64,000 nt of DNA from an uncultured Candidatus Saccharibacteria bacterium (lineage in GTDB: Bacteria; Patescibacteriota; Minisyncoccia; Phycocordibacterales; CALRHW01), in assembly GCA_964407105.1 (NCBI GenBank), contig CAYOUG010000002.1:76003-140002 (forward strand). Reading direction: 5' to 3'. A program made the position numbers and the translations under genes. Every line of letters starts with the position of its first letter. The stretch's first letter is position 1. A model generated the notes under the pieces. It had not been told where the DNA came from and searched no databases. It worked only from the letters and a program-made list of their open reading frames with translations. This document shows, piece by piece, positions 4,816-45,782 of the stretch.

Positions 4816-6057
4816 ATGCAAAAACAGAAAATTGTGATAGTGGGAGCGGGTTTTGCCGGAATAAATGCATATTTGTCGCTAATAAAACATCTAAAACCAT
4901 CAGAGGCACATATTACACTTATAAATAAAACCAATTATTTTCTATTCACCCCGATGCTTCATGAAGTTGCTACGGGAAGCTTAGGTGAAGATGTGATAGT
5001 AGAATCAGTAAGAAATATTATTTATAAAACAAACACAAGTTTTTTGGTGGCTGAAGTACAAAAAATTGATCTTGAAAAGAAAATTGTTTATACAACAAAT
5101 GGTGAAGAAAACTACGACTATCTTATTTTGGCGCACGGTGCCACCACCAATTTTTACAATATTGCTGGTGCAGAAGAACACTCACTTGTACTTAAAGACT
5201 TAGCAGAAGCTGTTGCTATGCGAAATCATTTTGTTTCTATTTTTGAGCAAGCTTCGGCGATAGAAAGTAAAGAAGCACGCAAAAAAATGCTTTCGTTTGC
5301 GGTGGTGGGTGGTGGCCCTACGGGTGTAGAACTTGTAGCAGAAATGGCCGACCTATTTTTTGAAACATTTAGAAAGTATTACAAAGGTGATATTTGTAAG
5401 GATGATGTTACTCTTTATCTTATCAATAAAGGCGTGGATTTATTACCAATTTTTGATAAATCTTTACGTAAAAAATCTTTACAGGTGCTTCAAAAAAAGG
5501 GTGTAAAAGTTTTTCTCAATAAAAATGTAAAAGAAATTACGACCGATAAAATTATTTTTTCGGATGAAGATTTTATTAATGTGTCTCACATAATATGGAC
5601 CGCGGGTGTAAAGCCAAATGAAATGTTTTTTGAACAACAAGTTGAAAAAGATAAAAACGGAAGAATTATAGTTGATCAATATGGAAGAATGAAAAATAGA
5701 AGTGATATTTTTGTACTTGGTGACAGTGCTTCTTTTGTTGGGGTGGATCAAAAACCACTTGCAATGCTTGCGCAGGTGGCAGTTCAGCAAGGAATTAAAG
5801 CTGGAATAAATATTTCATTAAGTATTCATAAAAAAACACTCTCACCTTTTATTTATCGCTCAAAAGGCACAATGGTATCGCTTGGTCAGTGGCAAGCGGT
5901 GGGGGAAATTTTTGGAATTTTGTTGAAAGGACCACTTGCTTGGTGGGTGTGGCGTACCGTGTATTTATTTAATTTTTCTTCGTGGCCAAAACGTATAAAA
6001 ATCGCTACAGATTGGACCATAAATCTTTTTTCTCCGCGAGATATTACTAAAGCTTAG
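4816..6057 (+). CDS. ndh: Type II NADH:quinone oxidoreductase (NDH-2, FAD-dependent pyridine nucleotide-disulfide oxidoreductase)
   Basis: Two Rossmann GxGxxG motifs (IVIVGAGFAG; FAVVGGGPTGVE) and about 410 aa length. Confidence 0.75.
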   Translation: MQKQKIVIVGAGFAGINAYLSLIKHLKPSEAHITLINKTNYFLFTPMLHEVATGSLGEDVIVESVRNIIYKTNTSFLVAEVQKIDLEKKIVYTTNGEENYDYLILAHGATTNFYNIAGAEEHSLVLKDLAEAVAMRNHFVSIFEQASAIESKEARKKMLSFAVVGGGPTGVELVAEMADLFFETFRKYYKGDICKDDVTLYLINKGVDLLPIFDKSLRKKSLQVLQKKGVKVFLNKNVKEITTDKIIFSDEDFINVSHIIWTAGVKPNEMFFEQQVEKDKNGRIIVDQYGRMKNRSDIFVLGDSASFVGVDQKPLAMLAQVAVQQGIKAGINISLSIHKKTLSPFIYRSKGTMVSLGQWQAVGEIFGILLKGPLAWWVWRTVYLFNFSSWPKRIKIATDWTINLFSPRDITKA

Positions 6058-6644: not shown

Positions 6645-7079
6645 ATGGTCATGCTTACGGATCAAATAATGATGGTGGTGCTTTTGTCCTTCGTGGTAGG
6701 AGGTGCGGTGTTGGTTTTTGGGTTGTGGATGAAGGTGTCAGTATTGATGGGCGACAAAGGCCGCCCTGTATTTCTCTCGGAGATCTATAAACCGGGAGAT
6801 GGGGTAATTGTCTGCAGAGTGTTCCAGGGTGATTCCGACAATTTCGACACATTCATTCAGTGTCGAAAACCTGATCAAACAGGAAAAATGGGTGCATTCA
6901 GGTTTGTGCGGGCGCACACACTGACTTGTAATGGTGAGCGTATTAGCAAAAACTCACTACCACCCGGAACATACCGGTACATCAAGGAAACCATCACAAC
7001 ACAAAACAGCAACGGCAATCTGCACATTGCAAGGACGACAGAGAGACTCGAGCCGATAATTCTCGATCACTCCGCCTGA
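6645..7079 (+). CDS. Hypothetical protein with N-terminal TM helix; compositionally foreign (about 50% GC)
   Basis: 144 aa ORF using GC-rich codons in an AT-rich genome; has its own promoter, RBS and downstream hairpins; no motif recognised. Confidence 0.4.
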   Translation: MVMLTDQIMMVVLLSFVVGGAVLVFGLWMKVSVLMGDKGRPVFLSEIYKPGDGVIVCRVFQGDSDNFDTFIQCRKPDQTGKMGAFRFVRAHTLTCNGERISKNSLPPGTYRYIKETITTQNSNGNLHIARTTERLEPIILDHSA

Positions 7080-16938: not shown

Positions 16939-18438
16939 ATGAATACAAAAAATACAAAAAGAAAATATATAATAGGTGGTGTAATTTTAATTATTATTGC
17001 TATTACGTCTTTTTTCGTTTTTAGAAAAAGTGATAGTGGAATTACGCCTGTGATTGTAGGAAAAACAGATATTGTTCAAACGGTACTTGCCTCAGGAAAT
17101 ACAAAAGCAATAAACACGGTAGATCTTGGTTTTGAAACAAGCGGTAAGGTACTTCAAGCGTATGTAAAAGTGGGTGACAGGGTAACCACTGGTCAAACTC
17201 TTATAGAGCTCGATAGTAGCGAACTCCAGGCAAATTTACTTAAGGCACAGGCTGATCTTGCTGAAGAATTAGCGGTAAAAGAGACCGATAGTATTGCTGT
17301 CAACGATGCAATACAAAATGCAAAAGTTGAAATTTTTGATGCTTATACAAAAGCAGATAATGTTGTACGCGAGACATTGGATCAATTTTTTGAAAATCCA
17401 GGAGGTAATATAGATACAAATTTTAAACCATATGTACAAGATGGTAGCACTAGTTATTTTTTCACAGTCCCATTTAATGTTAAAACTGATATTAATATAA
17501 AAAGAAAAGAAATCGAACAGAAACGATTAATATGGCAAAACCACTTAAATAATTTAACAAAAAATAATACAGAAGAATTACTTAGTGAGTCAGAAATAAA
17601 CCTCCAATACATTGGTGATTTTGTGGACCAAGTTTCTGAAATTATATTTGCATTAATGCCGACACAAAGTGCTTATGCGACGGTGGTTTCTGGTTATAAA
17701 TCAGATGTTTCTTCTGCTCGTACAATAATTAACACATCTTTATCAAATTTAAATTCTGCGCGTGAAAAAATAAATACCACAAAAGCTGGTGAGGTTTCAA
17801 ATTTTCCAACTGGTGCTATTTCGGCTCAACAAGCACGAAAACTTCAATTTGAAGCGCAAATAAAAAATATTCAATCGCAAATTGCAAAAAGACGTATCGT
17901 AGCTTCTTTTGATGGTATGGTAACAAAGCAAGATGTAGAAAAAGGTGAAATCGTAAGCGCTGGTCAAACCATTCTTTCTATTATTTCAGACAACAAACTT
18001 GAAATAGAATCAAATATTTCTGAAGTAAATATTAGTAAAATTGCTATCGGAAATAGTGTGGAAATTACATTTGATGCATTTCAGGGGGAAAAATTTACTG
18101 GGACAGTATCTTATATTGATCCGGGTGAAACACTTATGGATGGTGTTGTAAATTATAAAATAAAAGTAGCACTTTCAAATATAGATTCCAAAATAAAAAG
18201 TGGATTGACTGTAAATCTAAATATAGAAACATCAAAGAAATCTGGTGTTGTGTCTGTGCCACTTTATGCTGTAAAAACGAGATCGGACGGAAGTTATGTT
18301 CAAAAAATAATCGGTGACACCACAAAAGAAGTTCCGGTTGTTACTGGAATTGTTGGTCAAGATGGTATGGTTGAAATAGTTTCAGGTCTTGATGTGGGTG
18401 ATGTGGTTGGAGTTGGAGAAACAACTTCTGGAAATTAA
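16939..18438 (+). CDS. HlyD-family periplasmic adaptor / membrane fusion protein (MacA-like)
   Basis: N-terminal TM, long coiled-coil, C-terminal beta-barrel region; operon context with ABC pump. Confidence 0.7.
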   Translation: MNTKNTKRKYIIGGVILIIIAITSFFVFRKSDSGITPVIVGKTDIVQTVLASGNTKAINTVDLGFETSGKVLQAYVKVGDRVTTGQTLIELDSSELQANLLKAQADLAEELAVKETDSIAVNDAIQNAKVEIFDAYTKADNVVRETLDQFFENPGGNIDTNFKPYVQDGSTSYFFTVPFNVKTDINIKRKEIEQKRLIWQNHLNNLTKNNTEELLSESEINLQYIGDFVDQVSEIIFALMPTQSAYATVVSGYKSDVSSARTIINTSLSNLNSAREKINTTKAGEVSNFPTGAISAQQARKLQFEAQIKNIQSQIAKRRIVASFDGMVTKQDVEKGEIVSAGQTILSIISDNKLEIESNISEVNISKIAIGNSVEITFDAFQGEKFTGTVSYIDPGETLMDGVVNYKIKVALSNIDSKIKSGLTVNLNIETSKKSGVVSVPLYAVKTRSDGSYVQKIIGDTTKEVPVVTGIVGQDGMVEIVSGLDVGDVVGVGETTSGN

Positions 18439-18452
18439 TTTATAACATCAAA

Positions 18453-18923
18453 ATGTTTAAATCAGATTTTGAGAATCATCCGATACTTAAAATTCATAAA
18501 TTTATATTTCTTGTGGAAAAAAGTGTTGAATATGAACTTCAAAAAGAACTTGGTTTGGGTTTTTCTCAGTTCATGATTTTGGTAATGGTTGGAAAACATC
18601 CGGGTATTTCGCAAAGGAAACTTTCACTTTTGCGAGATGTTACTCAGGCGGCTATTAGTCGTCATATTGAGGTTATGAAAAAGAAAGGATATATTTCTCA
18701 AAAACAGAATGAAAATAATCGGCGTGAACACATACTTCATCTTACTTTAAAGGGTGAACAATATGCCAACAAGGCTTTTGTGTTAGCAGAAAAAAAGATT
18801 CGTGTTATATTTGAGACCGTCAATATTAAAGAAGAAAAATATTTAGGAAAAATTTTCGATCAATTATTGCAATGTTTTAAATCTGAAATGCCAGAATATC
18901 TTTTATGTGAAAAAAATAAATAA
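18453..18923 (+). CDS. MarR family transcriptional regulator
   Basis: Winged HTH: GISQRKLSLLRDVTQAAISRHIEVMKKKGYI. Confidence 0.6.
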   Translation: MFKSDFENHPILKIHKFIFLVEKSVEYELQKELGLGFSQFMILVMVGKHPGISQRKLSLLRDVTQAAISRHIEVMKKKGYISQKQNENNRREHILHLTLKGEQYANKAFVLAEKKIRVIFETVNIKEEKYLGKIFDQLLQCFKSEMPEYLLCEKNK

Positions 18924-33228: not shown

Positions 33229-33750
33229 TTAGGCGGCCACTTTTTCAGGCGGCGAAACCAACACCTGACACACAATGGTTGTTCCAGAAATAGCGACGCT
33301 ATGAATGTCTCGACATTCGTGGTCACAACCATACTCTTTTAGAAGGTCGCCAATGTGCGCGTTGCACAAACCCGACAACCAAAGAGTTTCATCGCAAACG
33401 ACATCGCTGTCGGTCGAGCAATGGGTTTCCCACGCCCAGTGACCGATATACATCAGTCGTTTGATGAGATCTGCTACTGCTTCGGTCACTTCGTAGTGAC
33501 AATCACACACCTCAAATTTGATCTTTGGGTATGCTTTGGCGATCCGTTCTTCTCGTCTGGTGCGGTAAATGATCGCTGCGTCTTCGTCGCTGTCCTCGAG
33601 TTTCTTGATTCGAGCAATTTCTAGACGCCGAATTTCTTCGGCGATGTTCTCTGTGCGTGCCCAAAGATCACCCGTTTTCCCAGCTACCCGTGCAAGGGTG
33701 GCCAGAGACATACTTTCCGTTGCCCCCTCAAACACAACCATTTCAGTCAT
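33229..33750 (-). CDS. Hypothetical Cys/His-rich protein, compositionally foreign (about 50% GC)
   Basis: 173 aa; CDCHYE...HWAWETHC...CDE...CNAH...CDHEC cluster; own TTGACT-17-TAGAAT promoter and inverted repeat in leader. Confidence 0.4.
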   Translation of the reverse strand: MTEMVVFEGATESMSLATLARVAGKTGDLWARTENIAEEIRRLEIARIKKLEDSDEDAAIIYRTRREERIAKAYPKIKFEVCDCHYEVTEAVADLIKRLMYIGHWAWETHCSTDSDVVCDETLWLSGLCNAHIGDLLKEYGCDHECRDIHSVAISGTTIVCQVLVSPPEKVAA

Positions 33751-39170: not shown

Positions 39171-39725
39171 TTAATTATCAACCTTTCGTTCTATTTTGAA
39201 TGGTAACGAGTTTACAAGTTTTTCGCCGTTTGAGCTGTAGATCCAACTAAATAGTTTGATATCCGGATTATTCTTCCTGAATTTTTCTACAGTTTCGATA
39301 ATCAGTTCTTTGGCGATTCCTTTTCTACGGAATTCGGGAATTGTAAATGACATGCAAAGATATAACGCCCCATATGTTTGTGCAGGAATCGTCTGTTCAA
39401 ACATCTCTCGTTCAGTGATTTCTTTTCTTATAAATTTTTCCTTAAGCTCTAGGGTGGTTGGAATACTTATCATCCAAGAAACGGGGTTATTATTGTTATC
39501 GAGCGCGGTGTTAAAACAATATGGAGAAAGTTGTCTCATTTTCTCTCGCGATGTTTCTGATACTGGTATTTGTTCAGGATCTATTGCTGTACCAAAAAAC
39601 TGCTCAGTAATAGTTGCAATCTTTTCAATCGCAGGCATTTCAAATGTAGAATGTAGACCGAGTGATTTGAGTTGGTTCATAGAATGAATAGTAGCAAAAT
39701 TAAAACCCCCTCTCATCCCCCTCAT
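39171..39725 (-). CDS. GNAT family N-acetyltransferase
   Basis: Motif A-like RRKGIAKELI; about 180 aa. Confidence 0.55.
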   Translation of the reverse strand: MRGMRGGFNFATIHSMNQLKSLGLHSTFEMPAIEKIATITEQFFGTAIDPEQIPVSETSREKMRQLSPYCFNTALDNNNNPVSWMISIPTTLELKEKFIRKEITEREMFEQTIPAQTYGALYLCMSFTIPEFRRKGIAKELIIETVEKFRKNNPDIKLFSWIYSSNGEKLVNSLPFKIERKVDN

Positions 39726-40350: not shown

Positions 40351-41277
40351 TTATTGTATCTCAAGTTTCGGATATTTAGCATGCAAATTCTCGAGGTGTT
40401 GTTCGTGAGAGATGTCCGCAGTCTGGCACACATAGGAAAGTTTGCCGAGTATTATGTGAAGTGTGTTTTCGGATAATTTTACCTCGGTATATTTCTGAAT
40501 ACATATAACAACGTCTTTTGAATGAACGACGTTTTCTATAGGATCTGTTTTGAACTCGCAAGAATCGGTAAACACAACAATACTTTGGTAGACATTCTCG
40601 GGTATAGACGGCATGAGCAACTTAAGCGACACGATATGAGACCAGTTCTGCTTGATAGGATTATGAAATTGGAATTTATTTTTTCCACCGGGTCTCGCTT
40701 TATATAATGACTGGGTCCAATGTTCCTGATCCTTACCCCCGAATATCCATCCATTGTAATCCTTACTCTCAATCACAAATATACCAAACCTTGATACGAC
40801 CAAGTGATCTATCTGAGATGATCCGTTATGGTCCGAAGGAATTGTTAGATTATTGAAAATGAAATAGTCCTTATAGTTCAAACCTTCAGCAAGAATATGA
40901 GCAATCTCTTGCTCTCCATCAGTGAGTCCGTCCATGTAACACTTACAGCCATGTTTCTCGCTATTAATTTTTGCAATCTGGTCCTTGGTGGCGTATGCAG
41001 GAATATATAAATTATCTAACTTATCATTTTTTGGTTGACTCGTAAGTTTTCTAATAAGCCATATGATACCACCAAGTATCAATCCTAAAATTAATATTTT
41101 CTCCAAAACGGGGATCAAATTAGTAATAGCAAATGATACTGTGGATATTAATAAAACCAAAACAAAGACAACCCCAATTATAAAAATACCTTCAAATGAC
41201 CCAAAGGGCTCCTTATATTTTTTATAACGACGATGTCGATAATAGTATGGTTTTATGTAGTTACGATAATACCCCAT
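40351..41277 (-). CDS. NERD (nuclease-related domain) protein with N-terminal TM anchor
   Basis: GEQEIAHILAEGL...QIDHLVVSRFGIFVIESKDYNGWIFG matches the NERD pattern. Confidence 0.55.
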   Translation of the reverse strand: MGYYRNYIKPYYYRHRRYKKYKEPFGSFEGIFIIGVVFVLVLLISTVSFAITNLIPVLEKILILGLILGGIIWLIRKLTSQPKNDKLDNLYIPAYATKDQIAKINSEKHGCKCYMDGLTDGEQEIAHILAEGLNYKDYFIFNNLTIPSDHNGSSQIDHLVVSRFGIFVIESKDYNGWIFGGKDQEHWTQSLYKARPGGKNKFQFHNPIKQNWSHIVSLKLLMPSIPENVYQSIVVFTDSCEFKTDPIENVVHSKDVVICIQKYTEVKLSENTLHIILGKLSYVCQTADISHEQHLENLHAKYPKLEIQ

Positions 41278-42689: not shown

Positions 42690-42777
42690 GTTGTTGCGAT
42701 ATGGTTATTGCGTCTTTTGATTAAATATATGGTGAATAATAGCAGAAAAAAGTTCGAAACAGAATATCTTTTGTTGG

Positions 42778-42806
42778 TTGACATTTGGTGTAAGGGGTGT
42801 TATTGT
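42778..42806 (+). promoter_or_regulatory. Sigma70-like promoter TTGACA-17-TATTGT for GC-rich orphan 42869..43138
   Basis: TTGACA at 42778-42783; AAGGAG RBS 6 nt before the ATG at 42869. Confidence 0.45.
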
Positions 42807-42868
42807 ATTTTCAGATCGTGAGATGTTCTTGCGATAACCTCTGTGAGGTGCTACCTATTTTGGTGGCC

Positions 42869-43138
42869 AAGTATAAGGAGTCAGTGATGATCATCAAGTG
42901 TGATAAAATTCCTGGTGACCGGTTTTTACGTCTGGTGGAATTCATTTTAGGAGCGGAGAACTTGGTTGATGAAAAGAACCAGGTTGTCAGCTTCAAAGGA
43001 GACATCAAGACTGATGAAGGGTGGTTCGCTGTCACTCTTGAAGTGAGAGACTGGTGGACTACAGAGAAATGGAGAAAGTATCGTGGGGTTTCGGAAAAGC
43101 TCCTTGTTAGGGTTTATCAAATCCTGAATCCATCCTGA
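42869..43138 (+). CDS. Hypothetical small protein (90 aa), compositionally foreign
   Basis: Start set at ATG with perfect AAGGAG RBS inside ORF 42797..43138; GC-rich; intrinsic terminator follows. Confidence 0.35.
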   Translation, partial: KYKESVMIIKCDKIPGDRFLRLVEFILGAENLVDEKNQVVSFKGDIKTDEGWFAVTLEVRDWWTTEKWRKYRGVSEKLLVRVYQILNPS

Positions 43139-43153
43139 ATCCAACTCTTGCAC

Positions 43154-43203
43154 CCCCCGCAAACAACAAAGACTTCGCGTCCGAGTTGTTGCGGGGTTTT
43201 TGT
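43154..43203 (+). terminator. Rho-independent terminator
   Basis: CCCCGCAAACAAC...GTTGTTGCGGGGTTTTTG. Confidence 0.7.
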
Positions 43204-43230
43204 TTGGAAAAATTTATAAAATTACAAAAG

Positions 43231-43277
43231 AAAAAGCCTCACCCAGAAGCGGTGACGCTTTTCTGGGTGGGGCTGTG
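43231..43277 (-). terminator. Rho-independent terminator for gene 43298..43798
   Basis: 14-bp stem AGCCTCACCCAGAA/TTCTGGGTGGGGCT (one G-U) followed by U-run on the minus strand. Confidence 0.7.
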
Positions 43278-43297
43278 ATCAGCTCATGAGCTGAGGG

Positions 43298-43798
43298 TTA
43301 CGTTGCTGCATCGATGAAGGGCTGCCAGCGCTCTGTGAGGCCGGGGAAGATTTCGGCCATTCCTCCCATGAGCGCTGGAAGAGCATCGTGGATCGTTTTC
43401 ACGTCTTTCATGCGACACGCCTCCCTTCGCACCCTGCTGTCGTCGTATGAAGTGTAGATTCGTCCCGCCCCCACTCGTTCTTCAAAAGATGTACTGTAAT
43501 TCGCATCTTCTGGGGACGTAACGCAATTCACTGTCACATTCGAACCATTTTTACCGAAGGTTACCGACCATATGCACCTAGTGGAAGGAAAGATTCTTTG
43601 GAATCGCGGCCTTGCTTCCAATGCATAGTACTCCACAAAAACACGCGCACCCTCACACACCGGATTGAGACTTGGAGAGGTACCAACAAGTCCAATAAGT
43701 GTGTACACAATGTGATCAATCTCCTGCCTCATACGGTCGATATTTTTCGAACCACGGACCAGCTGATCGACGATGTTTTCGCTCATTCTATCCTCCAT
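43298..43798 (-). CDS. Hypothetical protein (166 aa), compositionally foreign; promoter carries TACTGTACAGTA palindrome
   Basis: GC-rich ORF; upstream TTGACT-16-CATAAT with 12-bp palindrome at 43852-43863 overlapping the TSS. Confidence 0.4.
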   Translation of the reverse strand: MEDRMSENIVDQLVRGSKNIDRMRQEIDHIVYTLIGLVGTSPSLNPVCEGARVFVEYYALEARPRFQRIFPSTRCIWSVTFGKNGSNVTVNCVTSPEDANYSTSFEERVGAGRIYTSYDDSRVRREACRMKDVKTIHDALPALMGGMAEIFPGLTERWQPFIDAAT

Positions 43799-43896
43799 CT
43801 CTGGAAGGCCCTCTCGGGCGTTGCGAATGGGTATCTCTACCCGTTTAGAACTACTGTACAGTATTATGTAGTATTTTATTTAAAAGTCAATAGATA

Positions 43897-44910
43897 TTAG
43901 GATATGTTGAGCCCTACCTTCTCGCGCACCCCTTTCATCTTCACCTCTGCATGTTCATACATTTTCTCTCCGCCTTTTTTTAATATGTCTATCACACGCT
44001 TTGGATCTTTTGCAATTTCTTCACGACGAGTGCGAAGTGGAGCTACAAACGCAGAAATATTTTTCGTCAATATTTCTTTTGATTCTTTGTATCCAAGACC
44101 ACCTTTTTCATATCGCGCTCGGATGTCAGCGAGCTCGGCACCTTCATCAGCACCAGTCACACCGTTTACATTGCCGGCAAAAAGTTTGTGTAGTGCAAAG
44201 ACGTTACACGTGTCAGGATCTTTTGCCTCATCTACTCCCTTTGAGTCTGTAGGAATCTTCATTACACCTTTTTGAATTTCTTCGTCTGACGCAAAAAGGC
44301 CGATGGTGTTGCCATAGCTTTTACTCATCTTGCGACCGTCCGTGCCAGGGACAGTCATGACTTCTTTTAGAATGAGTGGCTCAGGAAGTGTAAACGTCTC
44401 GCCAAATATTCTGTTGAATTTTTCTGCTGTGTCGCGTGCGATTTCCAAATGCTGCTTTTGATCGGCGCCCACAGGCACGATATGTGCACCCGGAAGCAAA
44501 ATATCTGCCGCCATGAGAAGTGGGTAATCAAAAACGCCGACGTTTATTTCATGATTCTTCGCCTCCGCGTCTTTAAATGAATGCGCGCGCATGAGGTATG
44601 GCATCGTTGTGATGCAATTAAAAATCCACGTGAGCTCTGCGACTTGTGGCACGTCCGACTGCTTGTAGAGTGTTACTTTTTCTGGATCAAGACCAATGGC
44701 GAGGTAGTCTATGGCAAGGTCGAGTGTGTCGCGACTCAAGTCTGCAGGATTTTCTACTGACGTAAGAGCGTGAAGGTTTGCGATAAATAAATGGCTGTCG
44801 TATGTGTTTTGATTGTCCACAAACTGCTTCATCGCGCCAAAATAGTTGCCAATGTGTGGCCGGCCTGTTGGCTTTACACCAGACACAAGAATCTTTTTTT
44901 GCTTGTTCAT
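43897..44910 (-). CDS. trpS: Tryptophan--tRNA ligase
   Basis: KPTGRPHIGNYFGA (HIGH) and KMSKSYGN; start trimmed to MNKQKK ATG at 44910 (338 aa). Confidence 0.85.
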   Translation of the reverse strand: MNKQKKILVSGVKPTGRPHIGNYFGAMKQFVDNQNTYDSHLFIANLHALTSVENPADLSRDTLDLAIDYLAIGLDPEKVTLYKQSDVPQVAELTWIFNCITTMPYLMRAHSFKDAEAKNHEINVGVFDYPLLMAADILLPGAHIVPVGADQKQHLEIARDTAEKFNRIFGETFTLPEPLILKEVMTVPGTDGRKMSKSYGNTIGLFASDEEIQKGVMKIPTDSKGVDEAKDPDTCNVFALHKLFAGNVNGVTGADEGAELADIRARYEKGGLGYKESKEILTKNISAFVAPLRTRREEIAKDPKRVIDILKKGGEKMYEHAEVKMKGVREKVGLNIS

Positions 44911-45040
44911 TATGAATAAAATAATAGCAGAATGTGAGGGGTTTTGAAAGTAGAATACACGTATTTTATTTAAAAAAGAAAGGCTTCGAGTACATCGCGA
45001 AGCCTTAGGTGAGATCGGGAGAGATGTTTGTTCAGAAAGA

Positions 45041-45520
45041 TCACTCCAGCGAATCAGTCTTGAGTTTCTCAACCATCAACTGGAGTGAGATATCAAAGGT
45101 GACCTCGTAGAGAATCTCACAGAACAAAAGGTGGAGTTCATCGTCGCAGAACGACCAAAACTCACTGAATTCACGCTCCTTCCACTCCTGGACCACGGAG
45201 TCGATTTGGCCAGCCGCATGCCAGCCCCTCATAAGCAAACCCGTAGCAACTCGAGCCAGGGCGCCGACATGAATTGGACGCTCCTCATACAGAAAGGCGG
45301 CTAATGTCCAGCCGTTGCTGTACCACACCATTTCCTTGATGCGGTTGATCATTGTTTTTCTGTAGCGGTGAACGAGCCACTCAAAGGCAAGTTCACCGCG
45401 ACAATTTTGAGAAATTTGATCTGTGAGTTCACCAAGAATGTGTGGGTCATTCCGAAGAATGTGCTCCATAACTTCATGCGCTAGTGAATTTCGCCTCTCT
45501 AGAGAAATACGGTGTACCAT
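45041..45520 (-). CDS. Hypothetical protein (159 aa), compositionally foreign; promoter carries GTACTGCGCAGTAC palindrome
   Basis: GC-rich; upstream TTGACA(45589-45594 rc)-18-TATAAA, 14-bp palindrome 45549-45562, AAGGAG RBS 5 nt before ATG. Confidence 0.4.
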   Translation of the reverse strand: MVHRISLERRNSLAHEVMEHILRNDPHILGELTDQISQNCRGELAFEWLVHRYRKTMINRIKEMVWYSNGWTLAAFLYEERPIHVGALARVATGLLMRGWHAAGQIDSVVQEWKEREFSEFWSFCDDELHLLFCEILYEVTFDISLQLMVEKLKTDSLE

Positions 45521-45782
45521 AGAGTCTCCTTGGGGTGTGTCTGTTTATGTACTGCGCAGTACATTTTATATCACAAAAAACTATATTGTGTCAATATTAT
45601 TGTACATATAATAAAAGCTCAGACGAAAAGCTTTTTAGAAATTGACTCTATTTGGATTGGTTTGTTATACTGTATTCACAGTGCCGAAAGGCTTCGAGAA
45701 ACCCCGCCATATGGTGGGGTTTCGATTTTATAAGAAGGATTTTAATTTTTCCTTATAAAGAAAGTCTAAAATTTTGTTAAGG

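Follow-up and report, generated by a model that had tools for sequence, protein, structure and literature searches.

Are two unrelated foreign genes of an uncultured Candidatus Saccharibacteria bacterium controlled by one and the same repressor? The question is raised by a 64-kb stretch of contig CAYOUG010000002.1 (the window; positions below are numbered along its whole length), in which two orphan genes, designated A and B, each carry a perfect palindrome on the predicted core promoter. The two palindromes (sites A and B) lie 1.7 kb apart and have the same arms and spacing. An earlier note on this DNA had read them as operators through which a dimeric repressor would control a small regulon. 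The evidence is circumstantial and is accounted for most simply by a binding site for a single repressor. Operators at which one dimeric protein would occlude RNA polymerase are thus the best reading of sites A and B, if a tentative one.

The same palindrome at two promoters

Site A, TACTGTACAGTA, and the core of site B, TACTGCGCAGTA, both conform to the pattern TACTG-NN-CAGTA (Table 1), with TA at the centre in A (TACTG-TA-CAGTA) and CG in B (TACTG-CG-CAGTA). When exact matches to TACTGNNCAGTA were counted in the window and in 100 shuffled versions of it, these two were the only ones found (0.02 expected; none of the shuffles reached two). The common palindrome, half-site and 2-nt centre described in the earlier note are therefore present as claimed. 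At site B the symmetry extends further, giving a perfect 18-bp palindrome, ATGTACTGCGCAGTACAT (that is, ATGTACTGC followed by GCAGTACAT), the sole palindrome of at least 18 bp within the window.

Both promoters, predicted from sequence and not from mapped starts, are of the sigma-70 type and match the consensus at 10 of 12 positions or better. Both sites lie on the core of these predicted promoters, where an operator that occludes RNA polymerase would overlap the -35, -10 or +1. Site A, previously placed next to the -10, in fact overlaps it by 1 nt, the last base of CATAAT. The core of site B does lie near the -10, as had been stated (two nt after it), but the full 18-bp palindrome starts immediately after that element. 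With transcription assumed to begin about 7 nt past the -10, the predicted start sites fall inside both palindromes, which argues for a role at the level of DNA rather than RNA.

The genes so preceded stand out from their surroundings. The window has a GC content of 36.7% and its native genes a third-position GC content (GC3) of about 0.24; the values of 0.53 for gene A and 0.56 for gene B indicate a foreign (horizontally acquired) origin, in agreement with the earlier note. Proteins A and B, like those of the other cassettes described below, show no pairwise homology, so that gene duplication does not account for the shared DNA. The two promoters can be aligned only at the -35 and at the dyad, apart from a weak extra similarity beyond the latter, CAGTA-(2-4 nt)-TAAAC, present in both leaders (about 40-77 nt). 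The cassettes are not assembly artefacts, since an independent Logan assembly shows 100% identity along 6.4 kb; in a second sample the identity is 97.9% over a length of 2.1 kb. The exact sequences of the palindromes occur in the literature only as incidental primer and sequence matches, and no known RNA family was detected at the Rfam gathering threshold.

On the reading proposed here, one homodimeric DNA-binding protein would recognise TACTG half-sites 2 bp apart at A and B. The bound protein would cover the -10 and the start and block RNA polymerase, and the two foreign genes would be silenced and released together. We infer binding, repression and co-regulation alike, and the regulator would be encoded outside the window.

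Table 1. Positions of the features discussed, with the dyads found at promoters of gene B relatives. L002, L003, L004, L005, L006, L008, L048 etc. are labels of compared loci or strains.
Feature	Position	Strand	Description
Site A	43852-43863		perfect 12-bp palindrome, TACTGT/ACAGTA; overlaps final base of promoter A -10
Site B	45547-45564		perfect 18-bp palindrome; contains core 45550-45561; abuts promoter B -10
Promoter A (predicted)	43863-43890	-	TTGACT (43885-43890), 16-nt spacer, CATAAT (43863-43868); 10/12 consensus matches
Promoter B (predicted)	45565-45594	-	TTGACA (45589-45594), 18-nt spacer ending TGa (extended -10), TATAAA (45565-45570)
Possible third site	45668-45683	+	imperfect, TACTGTattcACAGTg; TACTG and CAGT arms 6 nt apart versus 2
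Gene A	43298-43786	-	162 aa; no family match, no homolog detected
Gene A 5' leader	43787-43856	-	three hairpins, GGGUAgagaUACCC, GCCCgagaGGGC, CCUUCCagagAUGGAGG; fold -22.7 kcal/mol, z = -3.1
Gene A terminator	43235-43274	-	intrinsic
Gene B	45041-45520	-	159 aa; all-helical, acidic
Gene B terminator	44970-45006	-	intrinsic; AAGGCTTCG...CGAAGCCTT, then T-run
L084 dyad			ATTACTAaacaaTAGTAAT; over -10
L219 dyad			ATTTCTTccAAGAAAT; over -10
L092 dyad			GTTAAAcTTTAAC; at +10
L094 dyad			GCCAGTtgagacACTGGC; at +16
L096 dyad			GCTGATtgaaacATCAGC; at +15

How far chance can account for the motif

The naive expectation of 0.02 implies a much stronger case than a look-elsewhere test allows. When any palindrome with 5-nt arms and at least two G/C was accepted, provided that it recurred with the same spacer (0-6 nt) in at least two of the 62 intergenic segments, 50 of 2000 shuffles yielded one (p about 0.025). 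This value leaves out the coincidence of both sites falling on the -10/+1 of strong promoters; with that placement added, chance becomes considerably less likely, by our own estimate rather than as a computed result. Apart from A/T palindromes, only TACTG with a 2-nt spacer recurs in different intergenic segments, and the relaxed pattern TACTG-N0-8-CAGT is enriched in the window (eight strand-matches against 2.2 expected, 0/100 shuffles). Avoidance of a restriction site was considered as an explanation and set aside because GTAC is only mildly under-represented in the window (144 observed, 215 expected). Near-motifs are also found in coding sequence lacking a promoter, namely TACTGggaCAGTA (18096-18108, 3-nt spacer) and aACTGctCAGTA (39598-39609, + strand, one mismatch), in a number that fits chance.

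A possible third site and a predicted divergent transcript

The imperfect third site, one of these relaxed matches, overlaps the -10 (TATACT, 45666-45671) of a plus-strand promoter (45642-45671) that diverges from gene B, 110 nt from site B. The divergent promoter is strong, of the extended -10 type (TTGACT-18-TATACT with TGn), and is followed about 25 nt downstream by a terminator with an 11-bp stem (45698-45723). A small RNA of about 55 nt is predicted here (45678-45731, + strand), with a fold of -25.4 kcal/mol (z = -5). Strain L002 has the same sequence for it, and its only Rfam match is sub-threshold (rnk_pseudo, E=6e-4). The sequence GAAAGGCTTCGAG at 45686-45698 of the small RNA is identical to 44978-44990 in the gene B terminator, and the small RNA could therefore base-pair with the gene B mRNA at its 3' end.

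Comparison with known operators

The SlyA operator, TTAGCAAGCTAA, and the ZitR/AdcR operator, TTAACYRGTTAA, are 5-2-5 palindromes bound by dimers of winged helix-turn-helix (wHTH) proteins, and operators of this type can repress from the core promoter, where sites A and B likewise lie (PMC5797941, PMC2156107, PMC6372160). The likeness to MarR-family operators extends to their design, a perfect or near-perfect 12-bp palindrome with 5-nt arms and a 2-nt centre (TTAGC-AA-GCTAA, TTAAC-YR-GTTAA). The half-site sequence differs, however, and the genes that follow A and B are foreign orphans rather than the regulator's own operon. MarR-type genes are usually autoregulated through the motif of their own operators, but the window holds no adjacent or motif-bearing cognate MarR gene. 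Sites A and B could thus work in the manner of such operators, though only a cognate regulator would allow them to be classed as MarR operators.

The E. coli SOS consensus is TACTG(TA)5CAGTA. Its outer pentamers are the arms of sites A and B, and in both cases the site lies over a promoter. That the sites are SOS boxes of a LexA-type repressor is nevertheless hardly credible. The E. coli-type LexA box, CTGT-N8-ACAG, has a rigid spacer (PMC8565304), whereas site A reads CTGT-N0-ACAG, site B reads CTG-CGCG-CAG with no CTGT arm, and the third site reads CTGT-N4-ACAG. The 8-bp AT spacer is missing, and the half-site centres are about 4-7 bp apart rather than 12. This spacing is incompatible with a rigid-spacer LexA and effectively refutes the assignment; the earlier note had been right in denying the sites the status of a canonical LexA box. 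Nor does gene content favor LexA: the genes downstream of A and B are function-less orphans rather than genes for DNA repair; the motif is missing from recR, dnaB, ung and the PD-(D/E)XK gene of the window; and the window contains no lexA or S24 peptidase gene. The LexA motif of Patescibacteria is described, in citing papers, as being of the direct-repeat type.

The orphan proteins and the gene B family

Gene A had been annotated as 43298-43798, but its start is most likely the second ATG (43786), which has a GGAGGA ribosome-binding site ahead of it and is the start called in a public collection. For both proteins, a word-indexed search of 5.8 billion clusters returned the query alone. The exhaustive phmmer search, run for gene B, detected about 12 distant full-length relatives (26-34% identity) on Patescibacteria-like contigs. 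Thus the two "unrelated orphans" of the earlier note are indeed unrelated to each other, but one of them belongs to a small family of distant members. Neither protein gave a convincing match in Pfam, NCBIfam, PHROGs or PADLOC (marginal only, such as a 43-aa JetB-like stretch with E=0.003), and neither has homologs in PHROG, phage or viral-contig collections; a single viral-contig match for gene A proved spurious, being a frame antisense to real phage genes. Single-sequence AlphaFold2 models, with predicted local distance difference test scores of 43 (gene B) and 38, were too poor for a fold search.

The leader of gene A is highly structured. Two of its three hairpins have GAGA tetraloops and the third pairs CCUUCC with the GGAGG of the Shine-Dalgarno sequence (GGAGGA), which suggests translational control separate from the palindrome. 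At the other end of the gene, a perfect 16-bp palindrome, TCAGCTCATGAGCTGA (43279-43294), lies 4 nt past the stop codon and upstream of the cassette terminator.

Members of the gene B family are GC-richer units inside AT-rich contigs, with their own terminator and a promoter of the layout TTGACA-N14-TGa-TATxxT, which promoter B shares. The units are single-gene except for two-gene arrangements in L084 and L097. In L084-L091 (L084 3240-5474) the homolog comes after a 93-aa DUF2103-like gene, which it overlaps by 4 nt, and an ART-PolyVal toxin-domain gene lies alongside; in L097 (2163-2997) it is co-transcribed after a 115-aa gene for a membrane-anchored PadR-like wHTH protein. No Pfam match was obtained from family members or from their consensus. 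The sole PDB match of the family profile is ClbS, a DUF1706-like protein (6anr_A; E=0.048), over the YAFEFF...Y..GW block; it is marginal and lacks Pfam support, and it hints at an immunity-type role. One member (P0004) matches a NikA-like ribbon-helix-helix model weakly at residues 4-36 (E=0.035), also without Pfam support, and Arg4 is invariant in the family, within an N-terminal xRLxLxER. The conserved residues are aromatic or acidic (AFEF, Y..GW, DEE, EIxYEL), and none of 13 family members has a significant DNA-binding domain.

Family promoters are rich in dyads. Perfect inverted repeats with arms of at least 6 nt, located between the -10 and +36, are present at 6 of 8 independent family promoters and at 24 of 164 control promoter-like sites (Fisher p=4e-4). 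In addition to the two dyads so placed in Table 1, that of L097 overlaps the -10. A MAFFT alignment of the family leaders is noisy as to dyad homology. The family dyads may be operators specific to each lineage, which possibly co-evolve with a regulator encoded by the cassette or by the host; in the downstream cases they may be RNA stem-loops.

Foreign cassettes at housekeeping junctions

Cassettes A and B have the same architecture (promoter, leader, GC-rich open reading frame [ORF], terminator), a GC content of 0.49-0.50, and positions on either side of trpS. Gene content and the closest TrpS relatives (77-78% identity) assign the window to the Parcubacteria/Paceibacterota (Patescibacteria) metagenome-assembled genomes, and the gene order in relatives is rpoA...rpsI-grpE-dnaK-dnaJ-trpS-aspS. 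The dnaJ/trpS junction is tight in L003 and the trpS/aspS junction in L003, L006 and L008. The corresponding junctions of the window are occupied by gene A, by gene B with a 264-aa gene of native appearance, and by a third GC-rich orphan (42887-43138), whereas the closest relatives (L048, L004 and L005) have different, unrelated GC-rich ORFs there, each with a TTGACx-N17-TAnnAT promoter. The regions concerned are 42700-45780 of the window, L048 5440-5965 and 6972-7767, L004 5145-5929 and L005 1128-1736; the ORFs that fill them in the relatives have a GC3 of 0.55-0.74. The dnaJ/trpS and trpS/aspS junctions are recurrent insertion hot-spots. A further cassette of L048, between rpsI and grpE, has a dyad with 8-bp arms, TGTGACTGgtgttCAGTCACA, 5 nt past its -10.

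All four closest genomes have their variable region marked by a hairpin, CCCCGCAACAAC...GTTGTTGCGGGG. It spans about 50 nt, AAACAAAAACCCCGCAA(A)CAAC...GTTGTTGCGGGG, and is found at 43148-43200 of the window, L048 7010-7060, L005 1166-1215 and L004 5236-5290, in the last case at another junction. Many organisms use its first 18 nt as a generic terminator string, and a metagenome scan with this 18-mer returned terminators of unrelated organisms. Relative to L048 and L005, dyads A and B lie 27-38 nt inside the cassette and not at the junction.

The window holds five GC-rich cassettes, which own five of its roughly nine strongest promoters, making control of such genes plausible. The three others (6645-7079, +; 33229-33750, -; 42887-43138, +) have a GC3 of 0.49-0.54 and match no Pfam family; their promoters are close to consensus, their leaders 55-81 nt long and their terminators strong. 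The cassette at 33229 has a dyad of its own, GTTCTaattcAGAAC, 12 nt past the -10. It also shares a 9-mer, AGACTGTTC, 7 nt past the -10, with an unrelated cassette of L048 (33812 region of the window, - strand; about 7640 of L048, - strand), and gene A has AGTAGTTCTAA at the same 7-nt offset; these strings may be a shared 5' end of cassette transcripts. No k-mer is common to all cassettes. Palindromes as a general cassette feature are unsupported, occurring at 5 of 27 foreign-type and 4 of 24 native-type promoters. Integron attC sites and IS200/IS605-type end hairpins were rejected as an account of the dyads, which are internal, with unrelated structures to left and right and no recombinase.

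An autonomous promoter-ORF-terminator unit of atypical composition, inserted between conserved genes, is the hallmark of a phage moron. The cassettes of the window likewise have their own strong promoter, an intrinsic terminator and an atypical composition, and they lie between genes that abut in some relatives. Unlike morons, they reside among the housekeeping genes dnaJ, trpS and aspS rather than in a prophage; phage genes are lacking in the vicinity, and phage collections contain no homologs.

Other features of the region may be recorded here. An exact 13-mer, TTCTGCTATTATT (- strand), recurs in the promoter regions of aspS (42735-42747) and trpS (44920-44932) and in the trpS promoter of L048 (about 5983-5995); it is probably an extended -10. 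Both aspS and trpS have a GC3 of 0.43-0.46, against 0.24 in other native genes. Between 43764 and 45899, strain L002 differs from the window by 34 substitutions in the 1014 nt of trpS, most of them in third codon positions and concentrated in the 3' half, and by one in the 480 nt of gene B; this unevenness points to recombination within trpS, or else to a gene B cassette of recent common origin. A 308-aa membrane protein (40351-41277, -), within a GC-elevated stretch (38.5-42.7 kb), has a NERD-like region that weakly matches two defence kinases, PglW and MAD6, at their N-termini (E=2e-7 to 2e-4).

A common operator and its alternatives

Several observations weigh against a single repressor acting at sites A and B. 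Only two exact sites underlie the regulon idea, together with one imperfect site whose different spacer a rigid dimer should not tolerate. Both palindromes lie on the -10/+1, but the earlier claim of an identical position relative to the -35 and -10 holds only approximately, the distance from TTGAC to TACTG being 22 nt at promoter A and 28 nt at B, a 6-nt register shift. In strain L002 (97.9% identical), an A>G change at 45551, one of seven intergenic substitutions in 488 nt, converts TACTG of the site B core to TGCTG; site A is intact. A scan of about 1.7 Mb of other DNA, as distinct from the source genome as a whole, yielded no further exact sites. None of 80 trpS loci from related genomes, 17 gene B homolog loci and 120 unrelated metagenome loci contains the motif, nor do the promoters of eight gene B homologs, and one-mismatch matches in 0.78 Mb of Patescibacteria DNA number 17 against 26.6 expected, none of them at a promoter; the enrichment at promoters for which the earlier note had proposed a search was thus not found in the DNA scanned. 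The small HTH/XRE or LexA-like gene that it had suggested seeking nearby was not found either: the sole regulator gene in the window encodes a MarR protein (18453-18923), 25 kb away. This gene closes an ABC-transporter operon. The motif does not occur at the operon promoter (about 14893), and the intragenic near-motif at 18096, which has no promoter, establishes no link to the MarR gene. About 17% of the strong promoters in these genomes, whether of foreign or of native genes, have a palindrome whose arms are 6 nt or longer. Finally, the dyads of gene B relatives all differ in sequence though similar in position, so that site B may reflect its family rather than any co-regulation with gene A. 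Of the earlier proposal there remain the perfect dyads over the -10/+1 of strong promoters and their sharing by two unrelated foreign genes; approximate register, the lack of a nearby regulator, the count of two, the L002 change and the motif's absence elsewhere in the scanned DNA weaken the operator and regulon readings drawn from them.

Some of these points can be read as showing that the dyads are independent and share a half-site by chance, site B being this genome's version of the family dyad. This is unlikely, though the likeliest of the rivals: it fits the excess of differing dyads at family promoters, the frequency of palindromes at strong promoters, the modest look-elsewhere probability, the absence of the motif from the other DNA scanned and the mutation in L002. 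It leaves to coincidence, however, the same arm and spacer at two promoter dyads, which we put at the order of 0.004-0.025 (a rough estimate of our own, not computed), and the fact that both dyads are perfect, lie 1.7 kb apart and head foreign cassettes, with a third related site on the divergent promoter. Somewhat less probable is that the similarity was inherited from a common mobile module or donor, the dyad being a relic or serving a function other than repression (mobilisation or replication). The single architecture and similar GC content of the cassettes, the CAGTA-(2-4 nt)-TAAAC string, leader strings shared in pairs (such as AGACTGTTC) and the unrelated GC-rich cassettes at the same junctions in the closest relatives are consistent with such a source. 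But the cassettes have no k-mer in common, promoters A and B are unalignable outside the -35 and dyad, no terminal repeats or target duplications occur at the cassettes and no integrase or transposase gene lies nearby, the dyads are internal, and two perfect palindromes are unlikely to persist without selection.

It is improbable that the gene B product is itself the repressor, its operators co-evolving with it, and that it also controls gene A and the divergent small transcript. A dyad conserved in position and variable in sequence throughout the family, the lack of any other regulator nearby, the ribbon-helix-helix match of P0004 and the invariant Arg4 are what such an autorepressor might leave; yet no member has a significant DNA-binding domain, the protein is acidic with conserved residues unlike those of a typical repressor, the only PDB profile match is to a self-protection enzyme (ClbS), the PadR-like wHTH protein is the more obvious regulator in L097, and three family dyads, at +10 to +16, lie inside the transcript. 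These last cases bring up action of the palindromes as RNA, namely as 5'-terminal stem-loops that stabilise the mRNAs or tune their translation, for which we see distinctly little likelihood in the window. As with known stabiliser stem-loops, the dyads lie at the start of the leader, and in L094 and L096 they form 6-bp stems with a conserved TGARAC loop and compensatory changes, at -42/-44 from the ATG; site B also begins at -44, a CACA-rich tract follows in all, and site B as RNA would fold into a hairpin of 7 bp (-6 kcal/mol for the leader). Promoter B, however, is 13 nt nearer the ATG than those of L094 and L096, and its predicted start is within the left arm, which leaves a leader folding at only -0.2 kcal/mol. 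Site A would be a 4-bp hairpin of about 0.6 kcal/mol, too weak as RNA, and overlaps the -10, as do the L084, L219 and L097 dyads; the dyads of the window overlap the -10 or predicted start, so their left arms would go untranscribed. Against this background, binding of one repressor to sites A and B continues to be the reading that we favor, tentatively.

Implications

If real, the element is of an ordinary kind, a palindromic operator on the core promoter, with two or three sites. It would be among the few concrete cis-regulatory elements proposed for the regulator-poor and largely uncultured Patescibacteria, and would show reduced genomes keeping strongly promoted, horizontally acquired genes under common control. 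A more far-reaching scenario, which we consider rather doubtful, is a pool of mobile, moron-like GC-rich orphan cassettes at housekeeping junctions that are held in check through dyads, two of them, and perhaps the neighbouring small-RNA promoter, wired to one regulator, possibly the gene B protein. Were this true, the gene B family would constitute a previously unrecognised family of autorepressors with co-evolving operators. The broader pattern may prove more useful than the pair of sites: unrelated GC-rich orphan cassettes recurring at housekeeping junctions of related genomes, and the dyads of the gene B family, conserved in position and variable in sequence, offer a workable handle on how these symbionts domesticate foreign genes.

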